DNA of 64,000 nt from the NCBI RefSeq assembly GCF_003790525.1, contig NZ_CP033632.1. One strand, given 5' to 3'. This document shows, one piece after another, positions 19,711-36,670 of the stretch (position 1 is its first letter; each line of letters begins with the position of its first letter). Under the pieces are notes generated by a model. It had not been told where the DNA came from. It saw only the letters and a program-made list of their open reading frames with translations, and did not search any database. Made by a program: the position numbers and the translations under genes. Source of the DNA: Escherichia coli. GTDB taxonomy: Bacteria > Pseudomonadota > Gammaproteobacteria > Enterobacterales > Enterobacteriaceae.

Positions 19711-19753
19711 TTCCTTCAAAATATCTCAACGAAATTTCCCGACACCTGTTTAA

Positions 19754-19774
19754 GGGGGAACCGCAGAATTCGGA
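19754..19774. repeat. 21-bp remnant of a Tn21/Tn501-family terminal inverted repeat
   Basis: gggggaaccgcagaattcgga matches the first 21 bp of the 38-bp IR; compare the complete IR at 49753..49790. Confidence 0.6.
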
Positions 19775-20172: not shown

Positions 20173-20196
20173 GAATACTGATGTAACACGGATTGA

Positions 20197-21090
<894 letters not shown>

Positions 21091-21092
21091 CT

Positions 21093-22149
21093 GGTTTTGT
21101 TGAATAAATCGAACTTTTGCTGAGTTGAAGGATCAGATCACGTATCTTCCCGACAACGCAGACCGTTCCGTGGCAAAGCAAAAGTTCAAAATCACCAACT
21201 GGCCCACCTACAATAAAGCCCTCATCAACCGTGGCTCCATAACTTTCTGGCTGGATGATGAAGCTATTCAGGCCTGGTATGAGTCAGCAACACCTTCTTC
21301 ACGAGGCAGACCTCAGCGCTATTCTGACCTTGCCATCACGACTGTGCTGGTCATTAAACGCGTATTCAGGCTGACCCTGCGCGCTGCGCAGGGCTTTATT
21401 GATTCCATTTTTTCTCTGATGAACGTTCCGCTACGCTGCCCGGATTACAGCTGTGTCAGCAGGCGGGCAAAGTCGGTTAATATCAGTTTCAAAACGCCCA
21501 CCCGGGGTGAAATCGCACACCTGGTAATTGATTCCACCGGGCTGAAGGTCTTCGGTGAAGGCGAGTGGAAAGTCAAAAAGCATGGCCAGGAACGCCGTCG
21601 TATATGGCGTAAGCTGCATCTGGCAGTTGACAGTAAAACACATGAAATCATCTGCGCTGACCTGTCGCTGAACAACGTTACGGACTCAGAGGCCTTCCCC
21701 GGGTTAATCCGGCAAACCCACCGGAAAATCAGGTCAGCCGCCGCCGATGGAGCTTACGATACCCGGCTCTGTCACGATGAACTGCGGCGTAAGAAAATCA
21801 GCGCGCTTATCCCGCCCCGAAAAGGTGCGGGTTACTGGCCCGGTGAATATGCAGACCGTAACCGTGCAGTGGCTAATCAGCGAATGACCGGGAGTAATGC
21901 GCGGTGGAAATGGACAACAGATTACAACCGTCGCTCGATAGCGGAAACGGCGATGTACCGGGTAAAACAGCTGTTCGGGGGTTCACTGACGCTGCGTGAC
22001 TACGATGGTCAGGTTGCGGAGGCTATGGCCCTGGTACGAGCGCTGAACAAAATGACGAAAGCAGGTATGCCTGAAAGCGTGCGTATTGCCTGAAAACACA
22101 ACCCGCTACGGGGGAGACTTACCCGAAATCTGATTTATTCAACAAAGCC
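21093..22149 (+). mobile_element. IS903: IS903 (1057 bp, 18-bp IRs)
   Basis: IRs ggttttgttgaataaatc at 21093 and gatttattcaacaaagcc at 22132..22149. Confidence 0.9.
21170..22093 (+). CDS. IS903 transposase (GTG start)
   Basis: ORF 21125..22093 translation is IS5-family. Confidence 0.88.
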   Translation: MAKQKFKITNWPTYNKALINRGSITFWLDDEAIQAWYESATPSSRGRPQRYSDLAITTVLVIKRVFRLTLRAAQGFIDSIFSLMNVPLRCPDYSCVSRRAKSVNISFKTPTRGEIAHLVIDSTGLKVFGEGEWKVKKHGQERRRIWRKLHLAVDSKTHEIICADLSLNNVTDSEAFPGLIRQTHRKIRSAAADGAYDTRLCHDELRRKKISALIPPRKGAGYWPGEYADRNRAVANQRMTGSNARWKWTTDYNRRSIAETAMYRVKQLFGGSLTLRDYDGQVAEAMALVRALNKMTKAGMPESVRIA

Positions 22150-23247
22150 ACGCGCTGGACACACCACGATGACAGCGGTTTTATCCCTTACGCCATCACC
22201 ACCGGCCTTGATTACGAGGCGATGACCGAACAGCGCAAAGGCTATGAGAACTTTGTTTATCAGAACGGCGTTTACGATCTCGGCACCAAAGGTGATATGC
22301 GACGTAACGAACGTAACCTGATGTGGAACCTCGATCCCTACATTCAAACGCACTGGCAGCTCACCTCAGCCCTGGGGCTGGACGCCGGGGCGCGCTATAG
22401 CTCGGTATGGTTTGATTCCAACGATCGTTATGTTGTAGGTAAAAATGGTGATGATAGCGGCGAAGCGAGCTATCACAAGTGGCTTCCGGCGGCAGCGCTG
22501 AAGTATGCCATGACGCCGCAGTGGAACGTTTACCTCTCTGCCGGGAGGGGATTTGAAACGCCGACCATTAACGAGCTGTCCTATCGTCCCGATGGTCAGT
22601 CCGGGCTTAACTTTGCTCTGCAACCGGCCACTAACACCACCGTTGAAGCAGGCAGTAAATGGCAGGTGGGCACCGGGATGGCGAGCCTGAGCGTCTTCAA
22701 TACGGACACGAAAAATGAAATTGTCGTTGCCGCCAGCGACAATGGCCGTACGTCCTATCAGAACGCGGGCAAGACGCGCCGCCGCGGGGTCGAACTGGGA
22801 TGGGATCAGCAATTTGCGCCCGCCTGGCGCGCCAAACTGGCGTGGACGCTGCTGGATGCGACCTACCGTGAAAACGCCGGCGATGCTATTCAGAGCGGCA
22901 ATCGGATCCCGGGGATTGCACGTAATAGCGCCTATGCCTCCTTTGGCTGGGTGCCGGAAGAGGGATGGTACGCTGGCGCTGAAGTCCGCTATATGAGCGA
23001 TATTCAGGTCAACGATGCCAATAGCGAGCAGGCTCCAGCCTATACGGTGACGGCACTGAATACCGGCTATAAATATGTGCTAGATAACTGGACCGTCGAC
23101 CTCTATACGCGCGTTGATAACCTGTTTGATAAGCGCTACGTCGGCTCTGTTATCGTCAACGAGAGCAACGGACGCTATTATGAACCGGCGCCGGGCCGTA
23201 ACTATGGCGTTGGGCTATCGGTCAGCTATCAGTTTGATTCGCTGTAA
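22150..23247 (+). pseudogene. iroN: TonB-dependent siderophore receptor (IroN-like) C-terminal fragment
   Basis: Beta-barrel C-terminus ending ...YGVGLSVSYQFDSL; starts at the IS903 boundary. Confidence 0.75.
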
Positions 23248-23791
23248 CAATACGGCTGCCGGAGAGTGCTATTGAGGTGAGGCTCCGGCAGCGGGTAAAG
23301 GCGTTGATTCCTGGTAACAATAAGCTGCTTATTGATGTATCAGTAAGCATGCCGGCAGCCATTGCGCTTGATATAATACTACCCCATATGAGCAAGAGTA
23401 TTTTCACGGAAAAGCTAGCAGCCAATTTCGGCCTCGCGGCCTTCCCGCTTCTCAATTGAGCATATAATTTTTCCGCAGCCAAAACCTGCTCAGGTTCAGG
23501 CTTGGTCCTTACAGACTGGTATTCAACAATCGAACCATTCTTAGCTATTGGCGTTACATAAGCACTTACCCAATAGTGGTCGCCATTTTTACAGCGATTT
23601 TTTACTAGCCCCATCCATGAGCGGCCAGATTTTAATGTACTCCACATATGCTCAAATGCAGCAGGCGGCATATCTGGGTGTCTTACGATGTTGTGAGGCT
23701 GGCCTAATAGTTCTTCCTCAGTGAAACCACTGATTTTAATGAAGTCAGGATTAACGTACGTGATATGGCTTTGAGGGGAGGTAGTCGAAAG
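23222..23791 (-). pseudogene. PAS-domain sensor (Aer-like) fragment, 5' end removed by IS26
   Basis: PAS-like segment PAAFEHMWSTLKSGRSWMGLVKNRCKNGDHYWV; coding frame continues up to the IS26 boundary. Confidence 0.55.
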
Positions 23792-24611
23792 GGCACTGTT
23801 GCAAAGTTAGCGATGAGGCAGCCTTTTGTCTTATTCAAAGGCCTTACATTTCAAAAACTCTGCTTACCAGGCGCATTTCGCCCAGGGGATCACCATAATA
23901 AAATGCTGAGGCCTGGCCTTTGCGTAGTGCACGCATCACCTCAATACCTTTGATGGTGGCGTAAGCCGTCTTCATGGATTTAAATCCCAGCGTGGCGCCG
24001 ATTATCCGTTTCAGTTTGCCATGATCGCATTCAATCACGTTGTTCCGGTACTTAATCTGTCGGTGTTCAACGTCAGACGGGCACCGGCCTTCGCGTTTGA
24101 GCAGAGCAAGCGCGCGACCATAGGCGGGCGCTTTATCCGTGTTGATGAATCGCGGGATCTGCCACTTCTTCACGTTGTTGAGGATTTTACCCAGAAACCG
24201 GTATGCAGCTTTGCTGTTACGACGGGAGGAGAGATAAAAATCGACAGTGCGGCCCCGGCTGTCGACGGCCCGGTACAGATACGCCCAGCGGCCATTGACC
24301 TTCACGTAGGTTTCATCCATGTGCCACGGGCAAAGATCGGAAGGGTTACGCCAGTACCAGCGCAGCCGTTTTTCCATTTCAGGCGCATAACGCTGAACCC
24401 AGCGGTAAATCGTGGAGTGATCGACATTCACTCCGCGTTCAGCCAGCATCTCCTGCAGCTCACGGTAACTGATGCCGTATTTGCAGTACCAGCGTACGGC
24501 CCACAGAATGATGTCACGCTGAAAATGCCGGCCTTTGAATGGGTTCATGTGCAGCTCCATCAGCAAAAGGGGATGATAAGTTTATCACCACCGACTATTT
24601 GCAACAGTGCC
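23792..24611 (-). mobile_element. IS26: IS26 copy 5 (Gly184 allele)
   Basis: 820 bp with terminal IRs. Confidence 0.97.
23844..24566 (-). CDS. tnp26: IS26 transposase Tnp26, Gly184 allele
   Basis: ORF translation. Confidence 0.95.
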   Translation of the reverse strand: MLMELHMNPFKGRHFQRDIILWAVRWYCKYGISYRELQEMLAERGVNVDHSTIYRWVQRYAPEMEKRLRWYWRNPSDLCPWHMDETYVKVNGRWAYLYRAVDSRGRTVDFYLSSRRNSKAAYRFLGKILNNVKKWQIPRFINTDKAPAYGRALALLKREGRCPSDVEHRQIKYRNNVIECDHGKLKRIIGATLGFKSMKTAYATIKGIEVMRALRKGQASAFYYGDPLGEMRLVSRVFEM

Positions 24612-24933
24612 GTAATTATTTAGGATATAGCTCTGTGATTTAGTCTTTTTAGGGCGTTTATTTATGTCTTTATGCTGTAATGTCGGTGCTGATTTGGTCT
24701 TCAATAAGGCGATTTTTAGCCCGCTTTTTCCGGGGGGATGAAATGTTATTGGATTGCTAAATGATTTCAAAAAAGGGGTAACATAGAGCGGGGATTAGTG
24801 TGGCGAGGCGCAGGTTTCCGATGGCAGGCTAAACGCAAAAAATGCGCTTTTTAGCCGGTGATGAGGTGAGGCCGGGAGGGGATGCGTCGCCGATCACAGT
24901 TTACAACAGGGTTTGATAACGGGAGGAAAAGTC

Positions 24934-25350
24934 ATGCTGCAGGGATTGAATCATCTGACGCTGGCGGTCAGCGATCTGGCGTCAAGCCTGGCATTTTATC
25001 AGCAGTTACCTGGAATGCGCCTGCACGCCAGCTGGGATAGCGGAGCCTATCTCTCCTGTGGGGCGCTGTGGCTGTGCTTGTCGCTGGATGAGCAGCGGCG
25101 TAAAACGCCCCCTCAGGAAAGCGACTATACCCACTACGCCTTCAGCGTGGCGGAAGAAGAGTTTGCCGGGGTGGTGGCTCTGCTGGCGCAGGCGGGGGCT
25201 GAGGTATGGAAAGATAACCGCAGTGAAGGGGCGTCTTACTATTTTCTCGACCCTGACGGCCATAAGCTGGAGCTGCATGTGGGGAATCTGGCGCAGCGGC
25301 TGGCCGCCTGTCGCGAACGCCCCTACAAGGGGATGGTCTTTTTTGATTGA
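24934..25350 (+). CDS. fosA3: Fosfomycin glutathione transferase FosA3, 138 aa
   Basis: Translation from [40 protein letters not shown]... matches FosA3. Confidence 0.9.
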
Positions 25351-25354
25351 CGGG

Positions 25355-25873
25355 TTAGTTCAGCTTACTGCCGGATTTCAACGTGCAGATCCACAGCGGT
25401 GAATTGATAGAGCTGAGCAAGATAGCCTTTTCGTTGAGCTTCTGAGCGTTGAGAAACAGCCCGTCGTGGCTGTCGGACATCTCGCGCATAAAGTAGTCGA
25501 AAATCACGTTCGGCGATTCATCAATCGAGGAGGCGCTCGATTCCCACTGATTGATGCGGTAATGACGCTCGGTGGCCGAGATGCGTTTGCTGCTGTAGGT
25601 AAACTTCACGTAGCGTTGCAGGTAGAGCCAGCCGGCGGCGGAGTCGGTGTAACCTTCGACCACCATCGAGCCTTTACCCTGCGCGCCAAAATTGAAGTGA
25701 ATATTGCCGTTAACGTTCTCTTTGTCCATGTTCTCAAAGCGCATGATGCCCTTAGTGGAACAGCTCATGACACCCGCGTTGTCGGCAGGCAGCAGCCGCC
25801 AGGCGCTAAACGCGGCGGCGGCAATAAATACCAGAACGCAGAGGGCAAAGAACGGACGCGGCGCGAGTCTCAT
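25355..25873 (-). CDS. Hypothetical membrane-anchored protein (orf1 of the fosA3 module)
   Basis: N-terminal hydrophobic segment; position in the usual fosA3 module. Confidence 0.6.
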   Translation of the reverse strand: MRLAPRPFFALCVLVFIAAAAFSAWRLLPADNAGVMSCSTKGIMRFENMDKENVNGNIHFNFGAQGKGSMVVEGYTDSAAGWLYLQRYVKFTYSSKRISATERHYRINQWESSASSIDESPNVIFDYFMREMSDSHDGLFLNAQKLNEKAILLSSINSPLWICTLKSGSKLN

Positions 25874-26661
25874 TACGGCTTCCAGGAGTAGTAAAAGTAG
25901 TTATCGCAATAGCTGAACGGGTTATCTTCATGCATGGCGCAGTGGGCAAGGAACACGCGCCCCAGCCCGTTGGTTTCGAGCCGATCGCCGTAGAAGAAAA
26001 GAAAACGTTCACCGGGTTTACAGGCAATATTCAGCCGCTGGCGTACCTCATCGAAGTTTTTGCCGTAGGACTCTTCACTGACCGAACGTCGCATTTCATC
26101 GCTGGCCAGCAGTTCGCACTGGCTATGGCTGAGGCGGGTCAGCGCGATAGGCTGGGATTCACTGATGCCGACCAGACTGAAGGCAACCAGAAGCAGGGCA
26201 ATGGTGAGCAAGCAGGCTCCGGCCATGTACCAGCACATCCCGCGAGCATGTGCGGAGCGCGGTGCGTCTGGCGTTGTCGTAACGGGCGGCGGTTCGGCAG
26301 GCGTCTGTTGTGGTGAAACCGGCGGCGCGTCGTCCAGCGCTTCGATAATGACCTCGGGATTAAGCTGCAAATAGCCGCGCGAGACGGTGACGATGATGTT
26401 ATCGACGCCGTAATGGCGAAAGGTCTTCCGCAGCATGCTGAGATACTGATTCAGATTGCTGTTGGATGAGGTTAATCCATTGTCATCCCAGACTTTTTTC
26501 AGAACATCTTCCCGGCTGACAATCTCGGTATGGCGCAGAAAATAGTTAAACAGGGCGCTGGCGGTGAGGGATAGCTGGCTGTCCGGTTCATCGCTTTGCG
26601 GCAGCGTCAGGGTTCCGTCGGTGGCGTCGTAGATAAAACGGGCATTGATGTTGTAGCGCAT
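25873..26661 (-). CDS. CadC/ToxR-like membrane-anchored winged-helix regulator (orf2)
   Basis: OmpR/PhoB-type DNA-binding N-terminus, proline-rich linker, one transmembrane segment. Confidence 0.6.
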   Translation of the reverse strand: MRYNINARFIYDATDGTLTLPQSDEPDSQLSLTASALFNYFLRHTEIVSREDVLKKVWDDNGLTSSNSNLNQYLSMLRKTFRHYGVDNIIVTVSRGYLQLNPEVIIEALDDAPPVSPQQTPAEPPPVTTTPDAPRSAHARGMCWYMAGACLLTIALLLVAFSLVGISESQPIALTRLSHSQCELLASDEMRRSVSEESYGKNFDEVRQRLNIACKPGERFLFFYGDRLETNGLGRVFLAHCAMHEDNPFSYCDNYFYYSWKP

Positions 26662-26680
26662 CGCGGCCTCAGTCTGTGCT

Positions 26681-27108
26681 TCACGCGGGAAGCGTCATTT
26701 TATTCAGGGAGTCAACCAGCGCGCGACGGTGGTCGGCGCTCATGGTGATCCCTTCCGTCAACTCCGAAAGCCAGATGCCGTCAGCGGCGTAGCGCACCAG
26801 CGTGCCGGTTGGGCTGTTATCCAGCTCATCGCCCTGCGCCAGTTTCTCCAGCATCCAGTCGCGCCAGCATTTGCGCAGCACCGGTTCATCGGGCATTGCC
26901 AGCGACAAAACCATAAGCTGGCGGCTTTCATGGGTGTCCGTGAGATCCGCCAGATAGTTCAGATAGGCGCGGGTAAACCGGCCATAGCTCACGCCATCCT
27001 GTTGCATCAGCGCGGTAATCGCTTCTTCCATGATTGCCAGCAGACGCGCGAACAGGGCGAATATTAGCGCCTGCTTGTTCGGGAAATGGTGGATAAGGCC
27101 GCCTTTAC
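26681..27108 (-). pseudogene. TetR-family regulator C-terminal fragment (orf3), 5' end removed by IS26
   Basis: TetR-like ligand-domain sequence; frame runs into the IS26 end. Confidence 0.6.
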
Positions 27109-27928
27109 GGCACTGTTGCAAAGTTAGCGATGAGGCAGCCTTTTGTCTTATTCAAAGGCCTTACATTTCAAAAACTCTGCTTACCAGGCGCATTTCGCCC
27201 AGGGGATCACCATAATAAAATGCTGAGGCCTGGCCTTTGCGTAGTGCACGCATCACCTCAATACCTTTGATGGTGGCGTAAGCCGTCTTCATGGATTTAA
27301 ATCCCAGCGTGGCGCCGATTATCCGTTTCAGTTTGCCATGATCGCATTCAATCACGTTGTTCCGGTACTTAATCTGTCGGTGTTCAACGTCAGACGGGCA
27401 CCGGCCTTCGCGTTTGAGCAGAGCAAGCGCGCGACCATAGGCGGGCGCTTTATCCGTGTTGATGAATCGCGGGATCTGCCACTTCTTCACGTTGTTGAGG
27501 ATTTTACCCAGAAACCGGTATGCAGCTTTGCTGTTACGACGGGAGGAGAGATAAAAATCGACAGTGCGGCCCCGGCTGTCGACGGCCCGGTACAGATACG
27601 CCCAGCGGCCATTGACCTTCACGTAGGTTTCATCCATGTGCCACGGGCAAAGATCGGAAGGGTTACGCCAGTACCAGCGCAGCCGTTTTTCCATTTCAGG
27701 CGCATAACGCTGAACCCAGCGGTAAATCGTGGAGTGATCGACATTCACTCCGCGTTCAGCCAGCATCTCCTGCAGCTCACGGTAACTGATGCCGTATTTG
27801 CAGTACCAGCGTACGGCCCACAGAATGATGTCACGCTGAAAATGCCGGCCTTTGAATGGGTTCATGTGCAGCTCCATCAGCAAAAGGGGATGATAAGTTT
27901 ATCACCACCGACTATTTGCAACAGTGCC
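27109..27928 (-). mobile_element. IS26: IS26 copy 6 (Gly184 allele)
   Basis: 820 bp with terminal IRs. Confidence 0.97.
27161..27883 (-). CDS. tnp26: IS26 transposase Tnp26, Gly184 allele
   Basis: ORF translation. Confidence 0.95.
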   Translation of the reverse strand: MLMELHMNPFKGRHFQRDIILWAVRWYCKYGISYRELQEMLAERGVNVDHSTIYRWVQRYAPEMEKRLRWYWRNPSDLCPWHMDETYVKVNGRWAYLYRAVDSRGRTVDFYLSSRRNSKAAYRFLGKILNNVKKWQIPRFINTDKAPAYGRALALLKREGRCPSDVEHRQIKYRNNVIECDHGKLKRIIGATLGFKSMKTAYATIKGIEVMRALRKGQASAFYYGDPLGEMRLVSRVFEM

Positions 27929-28400
27929 GGCTATCGCTGCTGCTGAGGCTGCAATTGACGACTATAGAGGCGATGCTTGCGATGGATGGAGCGAAGAGGT
28001 CGAAAGCATTTGCTGGGGGGTAATTATTCAGCAGGCAACCAAGGTCGGTGAACGCAAGAAGAGGAAATGCGACAGAGTATCACCATGGATTGAAAGAGTT
28101 TGTGATTATGAGCTTCGACCTAATGTCGAAATCCCAGCCACCGATGCTTTCCTGTCTGAAATTCGTGCGGAAGCACGCAACGAGGGGATTAACTATACCG
28201 CCAGCCGTCTTGCTGCTGCGTTCAATCACGGATTTATCAATAAGTCTTTGCGTGAAGTTTTCGACGTTACACGCATGATTTTGTCAGCGAAAGAAGAGTT
28301 GGCTAATGAAGCGCATCCGATTGATGGCCTGTCTGGTGAATATGCGGAGAAATCCCTTGAAGAATGGGCGGAACAAATTCGCAAAGGAAGCAGCCAGTGA
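27929..28400 (+). CDS. Hypothetical phage protein; 5' end probably removed by IS26
   Basis: Frame opens at the IS26 boundary; shares the PATDAFL-E-RA segment with the gene at 28684. Confidence 0.5.
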
Positions 28401-28687
28401 ATATCGACACGACAATAACGATCGATACGCTCCTAAATACCGGTCTGGCACTTCTCGGTTGGCTTTACATCATGTCCCGCACATGGCGATGGCTGGGTTC
28501 CATTTTCCTAAAACAGTGGAAAAAACGGCGCAAACAGGAACTACGCCAGAAGGCATTAGAAGCGTTCTATGACGCATTTGAGCTTAGCCGCATTGAACCA
28601 GGTACAACAGCCAGGATAGCGACAAAAGGCGACCTGATGATAGTGATGTTCCGACAGGAGAGAGCAGAGAAAGGGGAATCAGCATGA
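28397..28687 (+). CDS. Small membrane protein (GTG start)
   Basis: GTGA overlap with the upstream stop; one hydrophobic segment. Confidence 0.45.
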   Translation: MNIDTTITIDTLLNTGLALLGWLYIMSRTWRWLGSIFLKQWKKRRKQELRQKALEAFYDAFELSRIEPGTTARIATKGDLMIVMFRQERAEKGESA

Positions 28688-29418
28688 AATTTTCCAAATT
28701 TTCTGAGTTGGTGAATCGTATTTTGTCCAACAACCACAGCCATCGTCGCGATATGGATGTAACAATCGTTGTTCATTCGCCTGGCAGCATTGGTTCAACA
28801 CCTTCAGTTGAGGTTCAGTCAATTCACGCTGGTTTTGATTGGGATTCCGGGAAAGTGCTTATTTTCCCATCACAGCCACTGACCACGCTAACACCAGAAC
28901 AGATTACTGATATCACTGATAGTGTGCGCAAAGGTCAGTCTTGGCACGCATATCAGGAATACAAGAAGCATCAAGAGCAGTTGGAAAAATTGTCGATTGA
29001 ACTGGATGCCGCAAAACAGCGCATTGCAGAGCTGGAGGGTAATCGCACGGCGCTGGCAGTGGAGAATGAGCTGGCTCGTAAGGCAGTTCAGGCATTCTGC
29101 GATGTTGTTGGCGACAACACCGAGGTTATCGCTGAGGTGGTTGGGCGAGATGGCGTTCTGGTTATTTTGGAGGCCATGAAGGCAACAGGAAATATGCCAG
29201 CCACCGATGCTTTCCTGGCTGAAGTGCGGGCGCAGGGCGTGGATGCTGCTATAGAAGCTGCAAAAAATCTGGTGGCCCAAGAATATGAGTATAAGGATTT
29301 CAAAGCGGCGCAGAGTGATTGCTGTATGCACCCTGGTTCAGACCTGGTAGGGAAGGTTGAAATGACTGAGTGGTTAGTTGACTTTGCTGCCCAGCTTCGC
29401 AAAGGAGGCAACCAGTGA
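28684..29418 (+). CDS. Hypothetical phage protein, coiled-coil, 244 aa
   Basis: ATGA overlap; paralogous C-terminal region to 27929..28400. Confidence 0.55.
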   Translation: MKFSKFSELVNRILSNNHSHRRDMDVTIVVHSPGSIGSTPSVEVQSIHAGFDWDSGKVLIFPSQPLTTLTPEQITDITDSVRKGQSWHAYQEYKKHQEQLEKLSIELDAAKQRIAELEGNRTALAVENELARKAVQAFCDVVGDNTEVIAEVVGRDGVLVILEAMKATGNMPATDAFLAEVRAQGVDAAIEAAKNLVAQEYEYKDFKAAQSDCCMHPGSDLVGKVEMTEWLVDFAAQLRKGGNQ

Positions 29419-29933
29419 GCGAAATTAATTACCAGGCACTGCGTGAGGCGGCGGAACGTGCAATTCCAGCAATGGAACGCCTGTTAATGTTGCCAGCTGA
29501 TGATGATTTGTTAAGTGAACAGGAACTTAAAGATTACGGTGTGGATATTGATGCGCTCAACGCCTTCAAATTTCTGGCCGGACCAGAAACCGTGCTGGCA
29601 CTACTGGATGAACGGGAAAGGAACCAGCAATACATCAAACGCCGCGACCAGGAGAACGAGGATATTGCGCTAACGGTAGGGAAGCTGCGCGTTGAGCTTG
29701 AAGCAGCAAAATCAAAACTCAACGAGCAGCGTGAATATTACGAGGGAGTAATCGCGGATGGAAGTAAGCGCATAGCAGAACTGGAGGAGCGGGAAATACT
29801 GCTCCCGGAACGTAGCAGCATGCTTCATCGAACAGATTTTCACGATGATTACCAAACGGTAATGGCATACAAAGTTTCTGAAGTCATCGCTGCAATCCGC
29901 GCCGCAGGCATTCGCATCAAAGGAGGTGAGTAA
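29415..29933 (+). CDS. Hypothetical coiled-coil protein, 172 aa
   Basis: GTGA overlap with the upstream gene. Confidence 0.55.
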   Translation: MSEINYQALREAAERAIPAMERLLMLPADDDLLSEQELKDYGVDIDALNAFKFLAGPETVLALLDERERNQQYIKRRDQENEDIALTVGKLRVELEAAKSKLNEQREYYEGVIADGSKRIAELEEREILLPERSSMLHRTDFHDDYQTVMAYKVSEVIAAIRAAGIRIKGGE

Positions 29934-30109
29934 TGCGTGTGGCATGTATCGGCTTGTTACCGTACCCGACTCGTTTTTGGGCTTCTGCGCTAATTGCAAA
30001 GCCGTATGTCCTGATGGCTGACAACATCATCCCGGCACCAAAGCGCCGCCATACCGGTATTGCAGCGGCACGACGAGCAGCAAAGAGACGCAGGAGAGCA
30101 AAGCGATGA
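29933..30109 (+). CDS. Small basic protein, 58 aa (below the ORF-track threshold)
   Basis: Manual translation [58 protein letters not shown]; overlaps neighbours at both ends. Confidence 0.4.
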   Translation: MRVACIGLLPYPTRFWASALIAKPYVLMADNIIPAPKRRHTGIAAARRAAKRRRRAKR

Positions 30110-30282
30110 AAAACCGTAAGGCAAAACGACTTTTTTTACAGCGACCTGTGCGTGTGGTGGAGCTGGTTATTAGCAACCATAAGATAGCGGTACTCCATCC
30201 ATTTGGTCAGGTGGCTTTTGCCGCAAAGCGTAAGCCTACTGCGTCACAGAACAGGCGGAAGAAAGGGTACGCAGTAAGATGA
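30106..30282 (+). CDS. Small basic protein, 58 aa, starting MKNRKAK
   Basis: Manual translation; ATGA overlap with the next gene; paralog of 30279..30467. Confidence 0.4.
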   Translation: MKNRKAKRLFLQRPVRVVELVISNHKIAVLHPFGQVAFAAKRKPTASQNRRKKGYAVR

Positions 30283-30467
30283 AAAACCGTAAAGCAAAGA
30301 TTCTGTTAGTTCGTAGAAACGCTCCTGGCGTCTGGCAGTGGGTGAGACTCAGCAACCGACGGATGGGGTTGATGAAATATTACGGGATGATGGATTGTGG
30401 TTTTTGCAAAAAGCCCAGCGCGGCGCAAAACCGCTGGAAAAACCATTTGCGCACTAAAGGAGAGTGA
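30279..30467 (+). CDS. Small basic protein, 62 aa, starting MKNRKAK
   Basis: ORF-track entry; tandem paralog of the preceding gene. Confidence 0.45.
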   Translation: MKNRKAKILLVRRNAPGVWQWVRLSNRRMGLMKYYGMMDCGFCKKPSAAQNRWKNHLRTKGE

Positions 30468-30468
30468 T

Positions 30469-30984
30469 ATGGCGTTAACACACCGCGAACTCTGTCAGAT
30501 TGCGTACAAGTTCCTTAAGCGCAACGGGTTCAAGGTTTGTTTTCATGACCGCTTTATAGCTGTAACCAGTACCGGAGAACAGCCAGATGCTATGGGGTTC
30601 AGAAATTCAGCATCATGCCTGATAGAGGCGAAGTGTTCTCGTGCTGATTTGTTGGCAGATAGAAAAAAGCGTTTTCGTAAAAATCCGTCTCTTGGAATGG
30701 GCGACTGGCGATTCTTTATTAGTGAGCCGGGAATTATTTCAATTGAGGATTTACCACCTGGCTGGGGATTACTTCACGTTGTTAACGGAAGAGTACGGAA
30801 AGTACATGGGTGGCCCAAGGGTAATTGCTGTTGGGGTAACCCTGAAGATAAACCTTTTATTGGGAATAAGCAGGTTGAATGCGATTACATGTTATCTGCA
30901 TTAAGGCGCATGGAGTTGAGAGGGCACCTTAATGAAATATATGACGGTGTAATTGTTAATAAGAAAGAAGGAAACGCGGCATGA
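30469..30984 (+). CDS. PD-(D/E)xK-type nuclease-like protein (about 171 aa from MALTHRELCQ)
   Basis: Motif ...EQPDAMGF...CLIEAKCS... (PD, then E-x-K); AAGGAG Shine-Dalgarno 9 bp upstream. Confidence 0.5.
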   Translation: MALTHRELCQIAYKFLKRNGFKVCFHDRFIAVTSTGEQPDAMGFRNSASCLIEAKCSRADLLADRKKRFRKNPSLGMGDWRFFISEPGIISIEDLPPGWGLLHVVNGRVRKVHGWPKGNCCWGNPEDKPFIGNKQVECDYMLSALRRMELRGHLNEIYDGVIVNKKEGNAA

Positions 30985-31838
30985 TCACTATTACCAAAGA
31001 GCGACTGCTGACAATCAAGCAGTGGCGCGAAACATACGGACCTGATAGCAACGTTGTACTGCCAGCAGAAGAAGCGGAAGAACTGGCGCGTATCGTGCTG
31101 GCATCGCTGGAAGCAGAGCCTGTTCTGTATCAGTCCTGCACTCGCCCCACCTGGAATAGCGGTGTTCCGTGGACGGAATGGAAAGAACGTAGTCGTGAGT
31201 GCTACGAAGACGATTTGCGTTTTACAGACACGCCTGACCATGCCGGTTGGATATACAAATGTCGAAAACTATATACCACTCCGCCAGCGCCGATAGCGTT
31301 AGAGGCCATTGAAAACGCAATTGAATACATTCGTAGTATCGCTTTTCACATCGATGAAGACGATTACCACGGCAAACATATTGCGTATTTCATGCGACAA
31401 GCATTGGCCTGGCTGGAAGGGCATTCATGCAGCGACGACAGACTGGGTAAAGCCGACAATCAACCAGTACGCGGCAACCAGGCTGCCGAATCCAATCGCG
31501 GTAATGAGTGGACCGGCAATCCTGATATTGATAACGCAATCATCATGCTCGACCGCATAGATACGGCGGAAAGTTACGATGATGACCGTATTGAGGCTGT
31601 TAAGGCTGTTTTGCGTAGACTGGCAGGCAACTCTCCGGTAACTCCGGATGGTTGGATAAGCTGTAGTGAGCGAATGCCCCCTCAAGATGATTGGATTTTA
31701 ATTTATTCAAAGCACGGCGAGTATATGGCAGGACAGGTACAAGGGGAATACGTGGAGTTGAGCGACGGCACTTTATCGTGGTTAGGGAACGCCTTGTTCT
31801 GGATGCCGCTACCAGAACCGCCGCAGGAGGCGAAATGA
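30981..31838 (+). CDS. Phage protein with a DUF551-like C-terminal domain, 285 aa
   Basis: C-terminal GWISCSERMPPQDDWILIY...LSWLGNALFWMPLPEPP resembles DUF551. Confidence 0.5.
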   Translation: MITITKERLLTIKQWRETYGPDSNVVLPAEEAEELARIVLASLEAEPVLYQSCTRPTWNSGVPWTEWKERSRECYEDDLRFTDTPDHAGWIYKCRKLYTTPPAPIALEAIENAIEYIRSIAFHIDEDDYHGKHIAYFMRQALAWLEGHSCSDDRLGKADNQPVRGNQAAESNRGNEWTGNPDIDNAIIMLDRIDTAESYDDDRIEAVKAVLRRLAGNSPVTPDGWISCSERMPPQDDWILIYSKHGEYMAGQVQGEYVELSDGTLSWLGNALFWMPLPEPPQEAK

Positions 31839-32095
31839 TGGATGTAAAAGAGAAGGTTTTGCAGGTGATGCGTTCCCGGGCTGCCCTGCAAGATAAAGCT
31901 CTCGGCGGGGAATATCCATTCAGGATGGCAACCTGGAATCTGCGGTTGGCAATGGAGAAGGAATTTCCTGATGAAGAATGGCGTTCGGCAGATTTGCGCA
32001 AAATTCTTATGGAGCTGGCTAAAGACGGAACAGTATCCAAAGATACCCATGCCAGCCGGATTGGTCAGGCGGTATGGAGACTGGAGGTGAGGTAA
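31835..32095 (+). CDS. Hypothetical protein, 86 aa
   Basis: ATGA coupling to the upstream gene. Confidence 0.45.
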   Translation: MMDVKEKVLQVMRSRAALQDKALGGEYPFRMATWNLRLAMEKEFPDEEWRSADLRKILMELAKDGTVSKDTHASRIGQAVWRLEVR

Positions 32096-32376
32096 TGGCT
32101 AACCTGCAACTTGCCGTTAAAGGTGAATACTTCGATGCCATGATTCGCGGGGAGAAAACGGAAGAGTATCGCCTGTGTAATGACTACTGGAATAAGCGCC
32201 TCGTTAACCGTAAGTATTACCGCCTGATTATCACAAAGGGATATCCGAAGCGCGAAGACTTCAGTCGCAGAATTGACGTCCCGTATAACGGATATGAAAT
32301 AAAAACAATCACACATCCACACTTCGGTGATAAACCGGTAAAGGTGTTCGCGATAAAAGTGAAGATTAATAGCTAA
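32095..32376 (+). CDS. ASCH/PUA-like small protein, 93 aa
   Basis: N-terminal KGEYFDAMIRGEKTEEYR motif typical of ASCH-type domains. Confidence 0.45.
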   Translation: MANLQLAVKGEYFDAMIRGEKTEEYRLCNDYWNKRLVNRKYYRLIITKGYPKREDFSRRIDVPYNGYEIKTITHPHFGDKPVKVFAIKVKINS

Positions 32377-32399
32377 ATTTCAATTAACACGGAGTAATT

Positions 32400-32693
32400 A
32401 TGTGGCGCGGTAATAATCATGGCGGAAGTCAGATGATACTTACCGAATATACGTTCGACCACAAAACCAATAAATCACGTTCAGTATATTTGCTTCGGCA
32501 CAATAGCCGCGTAAGAAATACCGTTCTGGAGCAAAATCTGACCGTTGAAATGGATAATTTGGGAAACTTCAAGCCAACAATATCGCTTGATGATTTTCCG
32601 TGTGGTTTAAGCGAAAGAGAAGCAATGCTGAAATTAGCAGAATGGCTACAAAGATTAAGCATTGCTATTGAAGATAACTGGTCTGAACCTTAA
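32400..32693 (+). CDS. Hypothetical protein, 97 aa
   Basis: ORF with GGAG Shine-Dalgarno. Confidence 0.45.
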   Translation: MWRGNNHGGSQMILTEYTFDHKTNKSRSVYLLRHNSRVRNTVLEQNLTVEMDNLGNFKPTISLDDFPCGLSEREAMLKLAEWLQRLSIAIEDNWSEP

Positions 32694-32699
32694 ATTAAT

Positions 32700-33074
32700 A
32701 TGATGACACTAAAACATTTTCTTGACCGCCCATTATGGGCGGCAGCCGCAGGCTATGACTTTAATTATATGGATTGCATGTCTTATACTGCCAATGCATA
32801 CGACCATTCGTTCAGCCTGCTGTTTAATTCTTTAAGAATATTGCCGGAAACAGAAGTTGGAGAGCTTCATTTATGGATATTGGGCTTTATCGCGGCTGGA
32901 GTTGGTATTGCCGTATGGCCTTTTATTTTCTGGCTGGTGGCTGTTGTAGTGTGGTTTAAGTGCAAGACGTACCGGAAAAAGTATTTCTTAGGTGATGGAA
33001 TGACTGATATTGCCAAAATGAACATTGAAAAATGGACTAAGGAATGTGAAAAGAAATGGCGCAAAAAGAAATGA
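32700..33074 (+). CDS. Membrane protein, 124 aa, basic C-terminus
   Basis: Hydrophobic stretch LWILGFIAAGVGIAVWPFIFWLVAVVVWF. Confidence 0.5.
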   Translation: MMTLKHFLDRPLWAAAAGYDFNYMDCMSYTANAYDHSFSLLFNSLRILPETEVGELHLWILGFIAAGVGIAVWPFIFWLVAVVVWFKCKTYRKKYFLGDGMTDIAKMNIEKWTKECEKKWRKKK

Positions 33075-33730
33075 CTACTCTAACGACAGCATACTTACAG
33101 CAATTGGTATTTTTTGCAGGCGAGGCTACTTGTCATCCTGACGCAAACTATTTATTGGAATTTGAGAGGTTAGCGTCACCCGGTATCGTTCTGGAACTGG
33201 CCCAACAGGTGCTGGCCTTGAGACAAAAAGAGCAACATGAAAGTAATACGTGTAGATTGAATTTTGAGCAGTGGCTGGAACAGCAACGCGGGAAAATCGA
33301 TGTGGACTGTGGTTGTGTGTCCACTGAAACATTCATGCACTGGCTGCGGGTAGCTTACGAGGCTGGCAACTATCCGGATATTCCGGATAGTTCGGTGCCA
33401 GCGCCAGGAAAGGGCGTCACCGGTGAACGTATCCGCATTAAGCCGCATGTTTATCGCGAACTGGTTAACCGTCTCCACGATACAGCGATCAAGTGTGCTG
33501 GCACTCAGCAATTACGAGAAAGAATTAGCCGTGTTTTGGGCGACGTTATTACGCCATATCATCATAAACAAGCCGAGAAAAGCGGTCTGGAAAGGTGTCA
33601 TCTTGAGGCAGCATTAAACATTAAGCCGGGGCATACGCTAGGCATTATTGATGCACTGTTGGTTCATAAGATGGCCAGGGCTTTATTGTCGTTGGTGGAC
33701 GCTGGTGATACAAGCGAGGGTGAAGTATGA
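33056..33730 (+). CDS. Hypothetical protein, 224 aa
   Basis: ORF overlapping the upstream gene. Confidence 0.5.
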   Translation: MAQKEMTTLTTAYLQQLVFFAGEATCHPDANYLLEFERLASPGIVLELAQQVLALRQKEQHESNTCRLNFEQWLEQQRGKIDVDCGCVSTETFMHWLRVAYEAGNYPDIPDSSVPAPGKGVTGERIRIKPHVYRELVNRLHDTAIKCAGTQQLRERISRVLGDVITPYHHKQAEKSGLERCHLEAALNIKPGHTLGIIDALLVHKMARALLSLVDAGDTSEGEV

Positions 33731-34089
33731 GAGTTGCAGATCACATCAAACACCTTGAAAGAATTATCGAAAACGGTGAACTCTTAAGAGATCAGATGAG
33801 ACGCACGGCAGAAGCCAGGGAGGCGATAATCCGCAGTCAGGCTGGTAAATTAAAGCAATTGTCAGAGATTAACACGCTATACAAGAACAGACGTAACCGG
33901 GCGGTGATGCGGCTTCAGAAAGCACGTAATGAAATTAAATTGGTGGAGGCAAAACTGAAAAAACAGATCCAGCGTTACGATCAGCAAGATGCTTTTTATG
34001 CCGCCATCAAGGCGGCTGCTAATGAAATAGGCATCTGGAAGTTGCTGGTGGAGAAAGCAAAGACGAAGTTAAATGCCAACGAAAGCTGA
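33727..34089 (+). CDS. Hypothetical coiled-coil protein, 120 aa; last gene of the + strand operon
   Basis: ATGA coupling to the upstream gene. Confidence 0.5.
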   Translation: MRVADHIKHLERIIENGELLRDQMRRTAEAREAIIRSQAGKLKQLSEINTLYKNRRNRAVMRLQKARNEIKLVEAKLKKQIQRYDQQDAFYAAIKAAANEIGIWKLLVEKAKTKLNANES

Positions 34090-34164
34090 ACTACAGGTGC
34101 CCACCAGCACATACAGAAAATGATTGTTTCCACATCAAGGAGATTTTAATGTTTCACTGAAACA

Positions 34165-34302
34165 TTAAGTAAGCCAGTGCATAATTCCATTTTTTACTGA
34201 CCTTAAAAGCAAAATCAAAACGATGATGAGGATAATAGCCAGAATCTGGCTAATAATAGGCGCATCTAAAAATGCACTCAGGAACTGAAAAAAAGCGTTC
34301 AT
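34165..34302 (-). CDS. Small hydrophobic peptide, 45 aa (possible membrane-active toxin or holin-like peptide)
   Basis: Manual translation MNAFFQFLSAFLDAPIISQILAIILIIVLILLLRSVKNGIMHWLT; below the ORF-track threshold. Confidence 0.3.
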   Translation of the reverse strand: MNAFFQFLSAFLDAPIISQILAIILIIVLILLLRSVKNGIMHWLT

Positions 34303-35164
34303 TCAGGTGGTTCCTTGTCAAATGTAAAGGTGCACTTGCTCACGTTGACGTAGAAACCCAACCCCTATATAGTTGGATTCGGTGAATGAAAGTCGTTAAC
34401 GTGAGCTTACGGCACATGTTTTCGGAAAAACATCAGGGAACGGCTAATTCCTTGATGCGGGTGGGGTCTGTAATGCAGACCCTATCTATTAACGTCATGA
34501 TTGCATCTCAAATTTTCTCCTTATCTTCAATTAATCTACATTCATTTCATCTGTTAGCCACCACAATATGTAGAAAATGGCCCTCTTGCAAGTGCATAAC
34601 TTTGTGGATAACTCAGGAAGGAAAAAGTGGCTTTCGCGCACCTTCGGTCAGACAAGGTGTCCGGGAAAGTCAACGCAAAGAAAAAAATTGTTAAAAATAA
34701 CGTTTGTTGGAATTGTATATTTTTATCCCCTTCAATGGTTAGCATTCTATTAACATCTTTTTTTAGAGACAGAAAAACATATCGTAACAACATATATACA
34801 GTGTTAAGCGGCGAGTATTATCCTGCGGTGGGAATTCTGGGCGCTGTTAGATTCGACTTTCTCAGCAGGATTACATCGTCAACTTGCGACGTTGCCGTAT
34901 GACTTTCGTGTAATAGGTGACAATGATGCGGCTAGTGAGTTACTTGTGAAGTTTTTCGGAAAAGGTTTTGTGGCCTCGGATCTTGATGAGCTACAGCAAC
35001 ATGAAGTGTCTAATTTGATTTTTAGCCATAGCCAATAAGCCTCCCTCCTCCATCAAGGCCACAATTTGTGACCTTAAACAATTTGTTTTCTGCTTTTTCT
35101 TATTTGAGAAAATAACGTTGTTGACAGCTAATAGGCTCGTTGTTGTTATACATGCCTGTATAGA

Positions 35165-35521
35165 TTATGACCGTAAATTATTAGCGGATTTTAAGCCATA
35201 TTCACCGTTGTAGAAATTACTCATGTTCCATTCATTAGGAAGTTCTTTTCTGTCCAATGTATAGTGGCGCACGATATAACGATCTTCATCTTCTTCGATG
35301 GACAGGCGGACATAGCCAATGTGAATCACCGATACGGGCGGTGTTCGTATTGCATAGATGTCGCGGAGATATACCGGCAGCTCGACAAATGCATCAGGTG
35401 CATCTGTGATGCTCGTTTTTTCACAGTATTCATATAACGCATCGTTGATATCGTTAAGAGATTCATGATCGTATATTTCCAGGTAATTACCGCGATCGCG
35501 ATGGTACTCGATTTTAGCCAT
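35165..35521 (-). CDS. Hypothetical protein, 118 aa (second gene of a two-gene operon)
   Basis: Start codon immediately follows the stop of the upstream gene. Confidence 0.55.
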   Translation of the reverse strand: MAKIEYHRDRGNYLEIYDHESLNDINDALYEYCEKTSITDAPDAFVELPVYLRDIYAIRTPPVSVIHIGYVRLSIEEDEDRYIVRHYTLDRKELPNEWNMSNFYNGEYGLKSANNLRS

Positions 35522-36106
35522 TCAAAATCCCCTGTTATCGTTTTGCATTTCTCTAATCCGGTTCAGAACTACTTCATGCTGGACTTGGATAGCGGCTTTT
35601 TCGTTTTCAAGCCGGGCAATAGACATCTCTAATTCTTTGCTGTACCAGGCGAGCTGGGCCAGGTTCATCCGGTTGTGGTCGAGAGTTGGAGACACTTCGA
35701 CGCGATCCCTTTCTTCCTGCTTTAATGAGAAGAGATTTATCTCATCCCTTGAGGAAAATTCAGCAACAATTTCTTGTTGATGATCCGGTCGCTGCGGCAT
35801 CCTCGCCAGTATAAATGGCGGTTCTTTTGAAAACATGAATGTCGGTTCAGACCGTGTTTTTACCCAGCTTGCCTGCTGTCTTTCGGCAAGTTCACAGGCT
35901 TCATCATAGTTATCTGCCAAACAAAGCACGGATGGACGGTCCCACGCCCCACCATTCAGACAATAAACTACAATTTTCCCGTCAGGTTGTGTAACCCCAT
36001 ATGGATGGTCCCACCAGGCGTCCAGCTGAGCTTTAGAGCGTTTCTCGTTAGGAGTGCAGTCAAAATTTTTGGGCAATACAGGATCGAGAGGAATGCGGGC
36101 AGGCAT
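35522..36106 (-). CDS. Hypothetical protein, 194 aa, C-terminal coiled coil (first gene of the operon)
   Basis: AAGGA Shine-Dalgarno 9 bp upstream; divergent from humD. Confidence 0.55.
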   Translation of the reverse strand: MPARIPLDPVLPKNFDCTPNEKRSKAQLDAWWDHPYGVTQPDGKIVVYCLNGGAWDRPSVLCLADNYDEACELAERQQASWVKTRSEPTFMFSKEPPFILARMPQRPDHQQEIVAEFSSRDEINLFSLKQEERDRVEVSPTLDHNRMNLAQLAWYSKELEMSIARLENEKAAIQVQHEVVLNRIREMQNDNRGF

Positions 36107-36241
36107 AGCTAATTCCTTATTAACTGATTGGCAACGAGGTTACGCTGATCCGTTGGTGATGAATAGTAGCAAAGAGCACAAAATCATCAGCGGTGGTTGA
36201 TGTACGTAACGCGTTTGCACCAAAGGTGTCTCTTTAATGTA

Positions 36242-36261
36242 TACTGTATAAATGAACAGTA
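36242..36261. promoter_or_regulatory. LexA (SOS) box tactgtataaatgaacagta upstream of humD
   Basis: CTGT-N8-ACAG consensus read directly, 20 bp before the humD start. Confidence 0.8.
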
Positions 36262-36280
36262 TTATTGAGGTGAAAACGCT

Positions 36281-36670
36281 ATGGGCTTCCCTTCTCCTGC
36301 GGCGGATTATGTTGAAAGCCGAATTTCTCTTGATCAGCAACTAATCAGGCATCCATCAGCAACCTACTTCATGCGGGCAGTTGATAGCCATCACCGTGAG
36401 GGAATATTGCAGGGTGCTTTGCTGGTGGTTGATTCCTCGCTTACTCCGGTTGATGGTTCTCTGCTTGTGTGCGCTATGGAGGGTGAATATCGCATAAAGA
36501 GATACAGGAAGTATCCGCGCCAGCACCTGGAGGATTTAAGCACCGGGAAGAAAGAGGCGTTACCAGTAGATGACGATGGATGCACGGGCAGTAATGCTGT
36601 TTTTGGTGTGATCACTCATGTCATCAATGATGCCAGAAGTGGGGAGTTTGATGATTGTCCGGTTATTTAA
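36281..36670 (+). CDS. humD: HumD (UmuD'-like, LexA/S24 peptidase-type)
   Basis: 129-aa translation with S24-like features; LexA box upstream; position before phd-doc as in P1. Confidence 0.8.
   Translation: MGFPSPAADYVESRISLDQQLIRHPSATYFMRAVDSHHREGILQGALLVVDSSLTPVDGSLLVCAMEGEYRIKRYRKYPRQHLEDLSTGKKEALPVDDDGCTGSNAVFGVITHVINDARSGEFDDCPVI

Follow-up and report, generated by a model that had tools for sequence, protein, structure and literature searches.

Four probable early accessory genes at the 3′ end of a mosaic pmgT operon in a P1-like phage-plasmid

The window analysed here, a 64-kb stretch of DNA, is a P1-like phage-plasmid. We examined four consecutive + strand ORFs encoding proteins of 97 aa (32400–32693), 124 aa (32700–33074), 224 aa (33056–33730) and 120 aa (33727–34089), which the ORF list gives exactly as an earlier sequence-only reading had described them. 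The 97-aa gene is preceded by a gap of 23 nt and followed by one of 6 nt, the 124- and 224-aa genes overlap by 19 nt, and an ATGA overlap connects the 224- and 120-aa genes. Each of the four ORFs matched a PHROG family end to end (for the 224-aa protein, over aa 102–223), with E-values of 1e-49 to 1e-79, and all four are accordingly classed, by sequence comparison, as real genes. Scans of the four proteins against Pfam, NCBIfam and PADLOC models yielded nothing over threshold, and a PDB sequence search with the 224-, 120- and 97-aa proteins gave no match at E < 0.3. The locus itself is already known: the segment is 100% identical in DNA sequence to deposited P1-like genomes (MH422554, MH445380/1), two of the four genes have names in P1, and the published hypervariable region in which it lies is “variable region 8” of P1-like phage-plasmids (PMC9603915).

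The locus corresponds in position and synteny to pmgT-pmgU-pmgV of P1, which has pap on its upstream side and the upfM region, lxr, humD and phd-doc on its downstream side, and intact relatives share the same C1 operator. It differs from reference P1, where a single ASCH-like pmgT is joined out of frame to pmgU, in having a ~5.4-kb string of ea/nin-type cassettes in place of pmgT, in carrying PmgU in frame, and in the removal of the promoter by IS26. In a blastn comparison of the window with the P1 locus, similarity to reference P1 spans 33355–34710. The downstream non-P1 segment therefore starts ~620 bp past pmgV and not, as had been proposed, just after the four genes. Relative to the reference, non-P1 sequence also makes up the 97-aa gene, the 124-aa gene and the opening ~100 codons of the 224-aa gene. 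The four genes do terminate a + strand operon, but the membrane-protein gene placed at that end is the second of the four. The two proteins listed as unknowns have no known function, but both have a clear P1 orthologue: pmgV for one and pmgU, present here as the C-terminal domain of a fusion, for the other. An Rfam scan of 32000–36500 detected no RNA family, and no canonical terminator was found after pmgV. The sole feature noted there is an AT-rich 23-bp palindrome without a T-run at 34146–34168.

The 224-aa protein consists of an N-terminal non-P1 module of ~100 aa and a C-terminal P1 PmgU domain of ~120 aa. All 111 residues of PmgU align in frame with aa 114–224 at 93% identity, the domain being 93–94% identical to its P1 version, and phrog_21459 matches aa 102–223 (E 1e-79). 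As a measure of constraint, pN/pS in the PmgU part was 0.09–0.17 (0.17 against P1, in the same frame). By blastn and DNA alignment, similarity to reference P1 begins on the left at 33355 (P1 85182), which we interpret as a recombination junction within the 224-aa gene. The overlapping annotation of pmgT and pmgU in P1 arises because the equivalent junction is out of frame there; this overlap is a recombination scar, and most relatives encode pmgU in frame, as the C-terminal domain of a mosaic protein. The 811 relatives of the 224-aa protein range from 139 to 392 aa and display more than 10 distinct breakpoints, with aa 103–213 as the constant piece. PmgT itself (P1 gp095, with an ASCH-like N-terminus) has no real similarity to the 224-aa protein, the 26% identity of their alignment being a product of forced gaps. 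An alternative start at ATG 33071, as in the RCS47 annotation, would give a protein of 219 aa with an ATGA overlap with the stop codon of the 124-aa gene.

Further comparison addressed the relation of the 224-aa protein to proteins of the ea region. Sequence shared with EaA of the P22 group is confined to a motif of ~34 aa (aa 128–161; 59–68% identity, E 3e-5 to 4e-4), and several PHROG families match this same short stretch. PHROG families 60 and 924 match the 224-aa protein and the neighbouring DUF551 protein alike. Neither an Ead_Ea22 nor a DUF551 domain was detected in the 224-aa protein by the Pfam scan. Exchangeable domains and short conserved linkers are common to this protein and to lambda/Stx Ea22, P22 EaA and DUF551 proteins. 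The arrangement is nevertheless opposite to that of Ea22, in which the N-terminus and coiled coil stay constant while the C-terminal domain is exchanged (PMC10834534); in the 224-aa protein it is the PmgU domain at the C-terminus that stays constant and the N-terminus that varies by exchange.

The 120-aa protein is identical to P1 PmgV (gp097) at 116 of 120 residues (97%; E 3e-84) and matches phrog_4403 over 1–120/120 (E 6e-78). Synteny is kept as well, the start overlapping the stop of the PmgU frame (ATGA, 33727–33730) and the upfM intergenic region following, and on sequence grounds we assign the gene as the pmgV orthologue. PmgV is confined to P1-like phages, where its identity is at least 96.7%; its pN/pS of ~0.5 derives from only 6–7 differences, too few for judgement. 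The protein is basic (pI 10.2), and with A, E, K, R, L and Q making up 62% of its residues and no proline it appears helix-rich. A coiled coil, as claimed in the sequence-only reading, is thus plausible from the composition, but the heptad-contrast test was weak and not significant (the observed value was reached by 59 of 500 shuffles). Family scans of PmgV returned only weak coiled-coil-type matches (FlgN, DndD). In our survey of P1-like plasmids, PmgU and PmgV occurred together in 197 of 360 plasmids, and pmgV was missing from ~45% of those retaining the PmgU domain. An obligate PmgU–PmgV complex, which the ATGA coupling might suggest, is for this reason not required.

The 97-aa and 124-aa genes are both missing from reference P1. 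Relatives of their products with 30–70% identity occur in other genera; in lambdoid, P22-like and N15-like phages the corresponding genes occupy mid-operon positions within the nin or early regions. The 97-aa protein belongs to the phrog_1258/N15 gp44 family and is predicted to be cytoplasmic, with a conserved core at residues 12–97 and a predicted fold of an antiparallel four-strand sheet followed by a C-terminal helix. It is 40–58% identical to N15 gp44 and to the product of an unnamed gene that lies between ninF and HNH/rusA in mEp235 and SPN9CC. The 97- and 124-aa genes were carried together by 253 plasmids in the survey; we rejected an obligate pairing, as their relatives are found apart in other phages, whereas in this element they stand side by side in the P1 early operon. 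Our literature search found no study in which either gene had been deleted or expressed.

The description of the 124-aa product as a membrane protein with a lysine-rich tail was borne out. Hydropathy analysis revealed one hydrophobic stretch of 31 residues (~56–86; maximum KD19 2.38), and the protein ends in KKWRKKK, with a basic amphipathic C-terminal helix. AlphaFold2 predicted a single continuous helix at residues 53–97 (mean pLDDT 86.6), and the protein is confidently modelled as a single-pass inner-membrane protein. Its topology is probably N-out/C-in, as predicted from the positive-inside rule alone (charge bias N −2.2/C +4.5 over 25 family members). The N-tail of 55 residues lacks a signal peptide and is long for spontaneous translocation. 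The family (phrog_2638, E 7e-63) is small, a search of 1.84 billion proteins yielding only 24 representative clusters, and shares the conserved N-terminal motif MLTLKHFxDRPxWAAAAGYDFNxxDC, with invariant alignment positions P11, A14, G18 and Y19. We found no characterised relative, and no Pfam model (holins included), NCBIfam model or PADLOC model matched the protein. Fold searches of BFVD and PDB with the predicted model gave a single unnamed member of the family (in BFVD) and otherwise nothing beyond generic helical matches. Distant homologues occupy internal positions in lambdoid nin/early-right operons, with replication genes on one side and NinB/NinG/RusA on the other; here the neighbours are genes of unknown function and the PmgU-domain gene.

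The upstream part of the same operon (27929–32376, + strand) was delineated from ORFs, Pfam matches, the RCS47 and pQ502 annotations and similarity to Stx phages. It contains a 5′-truncated ead/Ea22-like gene, genes for DUF4752, Ead/Ea22, DUF551, Eaa and ASCH proteins, a 244-aa ORF, a 195-aa ORF and several small ORFs, and by these similarities all of its genes are identified as ea-type cassettes of lambdoid or Stx phages. The operon is abutted by a copy of IS26 (27109–27928, − strand), recognised from its terminal repeats GGCACTGTTGCAAA and from matches to plasmids annotated with IS26, CTX-M-65 and fosA3, which borders a blaCTX-M-65/fosA3 resistance module. The IS26 junction corresponds to position 2499 of pQ502, within an ead/Ea22 CDS. 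The element thus truncates the first gene of the operon and takes the place of pap and the C1 operator/promoter (Op88, PpmgT). In pQ502, MH422554 and RCS47, the same expanded operon is preceded by Op88, which immediately follows pap, whereas no Op88, pap or pmgS sequence was detected anywhere in the 64-kb window. A scan of 27900–33100 revealed no consensus + strand promoter, although such a scan may miss weak internal promoters. The IS26 end carries TTGCAA, with GCTGCT 17 nt further on; we do not claim a hybrid promoter there, because GCTGCT is a poor −10.

Since IS26 has parted the genes from Op88/PpmgT in this window, their expression is uncertain, and the four genes may here be silent passengers, severed from their promoter and heading for decay. 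The truncated first gene, the loss of Op88, pap and pmgS and the promoter scan all point in this direction. However, none of the four ORFs is disrupted, and all match copies in promoter-bearing elements exactly or almost exactly, which would fit a recent IS26 insertion, and read-through or weak internal promoters could still drive them. We regard silence and decay as a realistic prospect for this copy, but on balance a doubtful one. A different question is what the proteins do where they are expressed. In the P1 annotation, pmg denotes a “putative morphogenetic function”, and pmgU and pmgV lie downstream of pmgR and pmgS, pmgR being required for head completion (PMC9024508); together with the strong conservation of PmgV in the P1 lineage, this could mark the PmgU-domain protein and PmgV as factors in assembly or packaging. 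However, in-frame deletions of pmgT, pmgU and pmgV caused no plaque or antirestriction defect and fell outside the five defective knockouts, and the three proteins were not reported in the virion proteome, in which only PmgC and PmgG were newly detected (PMC9024508). All three genes were also non-essential by CRISPRi (PMC10695390). Also against a morphogenetic role are the many natural PmgU-domain plasmids that lack PmgV and the fusion of PmgU to freely exchanged N-terminal modules of the kind common to ea-region proteins. We consider this reading largely refuted and very improbable, although a morphogenetic or packaging role restricted to certain conditions may be compatible with the laboratory dispensability of pmgU and pmgV. 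The sequence-only reading had named clear orthology to P1 structural or morphogenesis genes of known function as evidence against its own proposal; orthology to pmgU and pmgV was indeed found, but these genes are morphogenetic in name and neither has a known function.

That proposal, namely that a membrane protein at an operon end serves superinfection exclusion or lysis, received no specific support for the 124-aa protein, whose gene is not at the end, whose homologues are mid-operon and which matches no model. Holins, antiholins and other factors that time lysis could look like this protein, which is small and has one transmembrane domain and a strongly charged, basic C-terminus, but these traits are generic and non-diagnostic. 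In the contexts examined, homologues were never adjacent to holin, endolysin or other lysis genes, and in lambdoid contexts a separate Phage_holin_3_1 gene lies ~1.9–3.6 kb downstream, past the nin genes. P1 has its own lydA/lydB/lyz lysis system elsewhere, and a holin expressed from an early operon would be prematurely lethal. A lysis role is thus unlikely, and we give it hardly any weight. Superinfection exclusion, in which the protein would stop incoming phage DNA at the inner membrane, agrees better with the protein's small size, its single pass through the inner membrane and the predicted periplasmic location of its conserved domain, and with its gene being a dispensable cassette in temperate phages of several genera. 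T4 Imm, HK97 gp15, P22 SieA/SieB and P1 Sim are likewise small phage envelope proteins dispensable for growth, and because T4 Imm, a membrane exclusion protein, is expressed early, early expression of the 124-aa protein would be compatible with exclusion. However, the protein shows no sequence, profile or fold similarity to these or any other known exclusion protein and no PADLOC match, and its gene, unlike theirs, lies inside repressor-controlled early lytic operons and is not independently expressed in the lysogen. Lysogens would consequently be unprotected, contrary to what is usual for prophage exclusion genes. An exclusion role during lytic growth is possible, but we judge a dedicated superinfection-exclusion factor to be unlikely.

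We propose, as the probable explanation, that the segment forms the distal (3′) part of the C1-repressed P1 pmgT operon, rebuilt from portable cassettes, and that it encodes four dispensable early accessory proteins. Recombination in this lineage would have rebuilt the operon from ea/nin-region cassettes of lambdoid, P22-like and N15-like phages. The products would be a small soluble protein of β-sheet and helix in the N15 gp44 family; a single-pass inner-membrane protein with its acidic, conserved N-terminal ~55 residues in the periplasm and its basic tail in the cytoplasm; an EaA-like mosaic of the constant PmgU C-domain and an exchangeable N-terminal module; and PmgV, basic, helical and specific to the P1 lineage. 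Of this picture, the orthology, the mosaic build and the membrane character are established here, together with the genomic settings of the relatives and the loss of the native promoter from this copy, and laboratory work has established that the P1 orthologues are dispensable. In intact relatives, lifting of C1 repression would switch the genes on, and the proteins may then target the host cell or competing phages early in lytic growth, rather than take part in virion assembly or lysis. Operon position and analogy suggest that a dispensable, early, host-directed accessory role is the most likely one for all four. For the 124-aa protein, the likeliest single mechanism would be binding of an envelope target by the N-terminal domain, with the possible effect of keeping superinfecting DNA out of the cell or of perturbing an envelope process. 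A more elaborate and frankly speculative version, to which we assign a low probability, is that these early-expressed, N-out membrane proteins of temperate enterobacterial phages bind a host envelope component through the invariant periplasmic motif HFxDxPxWAxAAGYDF..DC, thereby excluding competing phages or disarming a membrane-associated defence in the course of lytic growth, with PmgU as the constant effector or anchor of swapped N-terminal specificity modules.

We consider the “pmg” label, with its implication of morphogenesis, misleading for pmgT, pmgU and pmgV alike. The operon serves P1-like phage-plasmids as a landing pad for the exchange of ea/nin cassettes with phages of the lambdoid and Stx groups, and in this element the same hotspot took up an IS26-bounded CTX-M-65/fosA3 module, uncoupling the operon from C1 control. 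The 97-aa protein and the membrane protein represent compact, confidently modelled families and are candidates for exclusion and anti-defence screens.

The four plus-strand ORFs at the tail of the pmgT operon were recovered in the ORF list exactly as the sequence-only reading had placed them: 97 aa (32400-32693), 124 aa (32700-33074), 224 aa (33056-33730) and 120 aa (33727-34089), separated successively by 6 nt, a 19-nt overlap and an ATGA overlap, with the stop of the ASCH gene 23 nt 5′ of the 97-aa ORF. If it started instead at ATG 33071, as annotated in the P1-like phage RCS47, the 224-aa gene would encode 219 aa and overlap the stop of the 124-aa gene by ATGA. PHROG families labelled 'unknown function' cover all four ORFs end to end (E = 3e-49, 7e-63, 1e-79 and 6e-78, respectively); no known-function family was matched by any of the four proteins in Pfam, PHROG, NCBIfam or PADLOC, and PDB sequence searches with the 97-, 224- and 120-aa proteins were empty.

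The DNA at 32000-34400 matches three deposited P1-like genomes (MH422554, MH445380 and MH445381) at 100% identity, and phages SJ46 and RCS47 at 97-99%. Similarity to reference P1 (NC_005856) extends from 33355 (= P1 85182) to 34710 and resumes at approximately 35539, covering lxr/humD/phd-doc. The segment between (34711-35538), the 'non-P1 insert' of the sequence-only reading, takes the place of hot and of part of lxr; it contains a 118-aa minus-strand ORF (35165-35521), annotated 'Upf93.6' in MH422554 and followed by a 194-aa lxr-like ORF. In P1, pap is followed by the pmgT operon, which is controlled by the C1 operator Op88 and promoters P1/P2pmgT, and Op88 (ATTGCTCTAATAAATCT) was found after pap, 5′ of the expanded operon, in pQ502 (a relative with an intact promoter), MH422554 and RCS47. 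Overall, the segment represents a typical allele of an accessory operon known to be hypervariable, and it is already in public records.

In the window, an IS26 copy (27109-27928, tnpA on the minus strand, terminal repeats GGCACTGTTGCAAA) ends an IS26/IS903B/blaCTX-M-65/fosA3 resistance module with two IS26 copies, which spans at least 18000-27928 and matches modules of many Enterobacteriaceae plasmids at 100% identity. The junction lies within the first ead/Ea22-like gene (position 2499 in pQ502, where the CDS spans 2104-2970); IS26 truncates this first operon gene and has removed pap and the Op88/PpmgT promoter. Nothing resembling pmgS, pap or Op88 was found anywhere in the 64-kb window, and a consensus scan from the end of IS26 to 33100 gave no plus-strand promoter, so it is uncertain whether the four genes are expressed here. 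All four remain intact, as fits a recent IS26 insertion. A 28-codon hydrophobic mini-ORF (MNTAFKIIMAAIYFWLFSITFGGIVAHG), in a stretch absent from the window, lies just 3′ of Op88 at approximately 965-1050 of pQ502, preceding the first annotated operon gene.

The operon at 27929-33354 is a string of cassettes (the truncated ead/Ea22-like gene, DUF4752, Ead/Ea22, DUF551, Eaa and ASCH) with 92-97% DNA identity to Stx-converting and other lambdoid phages. Relatives of the 97- and 124-aa proteins occur in other genera at 30-70% identity; the two genes are separate in other phages and together in 253 P1-like plasmids. The 97-aa family includes N15 gp44 and members in phiKO2 and in the nin regions of mEp235 and P22-like SPN9CC, in both of which the gene lies between ninF and HNH/rusA genes. 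Most of its 122 relatives (Escherichia, Salmonella, Klebsiella, Citrobacter, Erwinia and others) are exactly 97 aa long, with 16 invariant positions, mainly in the C-terminal third (F66 to S95), and the model is a four-strand antiparallel meander with a C-terminal helix (pLDDT 85.7).

The C-terminal ~120 residues of the 224-aa protein correspond to P1 PmgU (93% identity across all 111 PmgU residues), and the N-terminal ~100 residues show no relationship to P1 PmgT. DNA alignment showed that P1 joins an ASCH-like N-terminal module to the PmgU module in a different reading frame, which explains the odd overlapping pmgT/pmgU annotation; in the window, pQ502 and RCS47, a longer protein ends in the PmgU module, read in frame. 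The overlap in reference P1 (4307-5376 of the extracted locus, = P1 84488-85557) thus appears to be a recombination scar. P1 pmgT reads past the junction into a non-conserved frame, where relatives encode a single in-frame fusion protein. The pN/pS of 0.09-0.17 for the PmgU reading frame points to selection acting on it. Relatives of the 224-aa protein number 811, with lengths of 139-392 aa; when the best 120 of these were mapped onto the query, similarity started at residues ~1, 6, 17, 27, 31, 38, 45, 57-62, 66-68, 74, 83-88 and 101-103 and ended at ~213 or 224. The gene is therefore a patchwork assembled by recombination, in which residues 103-213 stay constant and the tail takes one of two forms. 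The 224-aa protein shares a ~34-residue motif (128-161) with P22-group EaA proteins and with proteins adjoining primase genes in Klebsiella phages, and several PHROG families match solely in this stretch. Genes of the ea region are known to be mosaic: in lambda/Stx Ea22 variants the C-terminal domain is exchanged and the N-terminus stays constant (PMC10834534), whereas in the 224-aa protein the polarity is reversed and the C-terminal piece is constant. A stand-alone ASCH-domain gene lies at 32095-32376, just 5′ of the four genes, and P1 PmgT has an ASCH-like N-terminus (…RAILEGRKTQTRR…), so that an ASCH module recurs at the locus in different arrangements.

The 124-aa family is much smaller than the 97-aa family: a search of 1.84 billion proteins gave 24 representative clusters. 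The protein's one hydrophobic stretch is 31 residues long (maximum KD19 2.38), and its C-terminus reads KKWRKKK. An AlphaFold2 model built from a 25-sequence alignment was confident (pLDDT 86.6, pTM 0.69), with short helices at 4-9 and 11-16, a helix at 23-46, a continuous one at 53-97 that includes the hydrophobic stretch, and a last one at the C-terminus (103-123); a BFVD fold search with it returned one unnamed family member and nothing specific. Conservation is strongest in the N-terminal motif MLTLKHFxDRPxWAAAAGYDFNxxDC (P11, A14, G18 and Y19 invariant). Since the family-wide mean net charge is acidic before the TM segment (-2.2) and basic after it (+4.5), the positive-inside rule predicts an N-out/C-in topology.

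In phages, relatives of the 124-aa protein lie in early regions: between NinB and RusA/Q in phiKp_30, among exonuclease and Dam genes in Yersinia P840, and between exonuclease and primase in Proteus phages. Distant prophage members have replication genes (DnaB-, primase- or DnaC-like) on one side and NinB/NinG/RusA on the other, with a separate holin ~1.9-3.6 kb downstream; one weak outlier adjoins a terminase gene. The sequence-only reading holds as a description, but its suggestion of superinfection exclusion or lysis for the membrane protein is unsupported, and lysis is unlikely because the gene never adjoins lysis genes and sits in early operons. Published P1 genetics also speaks against a morphogenesis role for pmgT, pmgU and pmgV: in-frame deletions of all three were built by Gonzales et al. 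and were not among the five knockouts with a defect, the other 24 having normal plaquing and antirestriction activity; PmgC and PmgG were the only new virion proteins (PMC9024508), and genome-wide CRISPRi scored the three genes as non-essential (PMC10695390). Given C1 control of the operon in intact relatives, the nin/ea cassette provenance and this dispensability, the four genes are best read as probable dispensable early accessory proteins acting on the host or competitors. The favoured, putative mechanism is that the 124-aa protein would bind an envelope target via its conserved N-terminal domain, with exclusion of superinfecting phages during lytic growth as a possible outcome. That this family is a new early envelope-targeting/exclusion factor, and the PmgU domain a constant module with swappable specificity domains, we consider rather improbable.

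The 120-aa protein is P1 PmgV (116/120 residues identical), found in P1-like phages only, at identities of at least 96.7%. It is basic (pI 10.2), lacks proline and is 62% A/E/K/R/L/Q; a heptad test was not significant (59/500 shuffles), which leaves the earlier 'coiled-coil' label no more than plausible. The PmgU+PmgV segment matched 360 plasmids, 197 with both and the remainder, e.g. RCS47, ending after the PmgU domain; PmgV as an obligate partner of that domain was therefore ruled out. A perfect 23-bp AT-rich palindrome, TTAATGTTTCA-C-TGAAACATTAA (34146-34168), lies 57 nt 3′ of the pmgV stop; it was rejected as a canonical terminator because neither strand has a T-run, and it may be a protein-binding site. 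The palindrome overlaps the stop of an unannotated, strongly hydrophobic 45-aa minus-strand ORF (MNAFFQFLSAFLDAPIISQILAIILIIVLILLLRSVKNGIMHWLT; 34165-34302, AGGA 9 nt upstream), which is convergent with pmgV and lies, within the 'upfM' intergenic region, opposite the PupfM promoters annotated there. This ORF had no Pfam, NCBIfam or Rfam match, is kept in reference P1 and pQ502 (43/45 identical), and resembles a small membrane peptide or a type I toxin.
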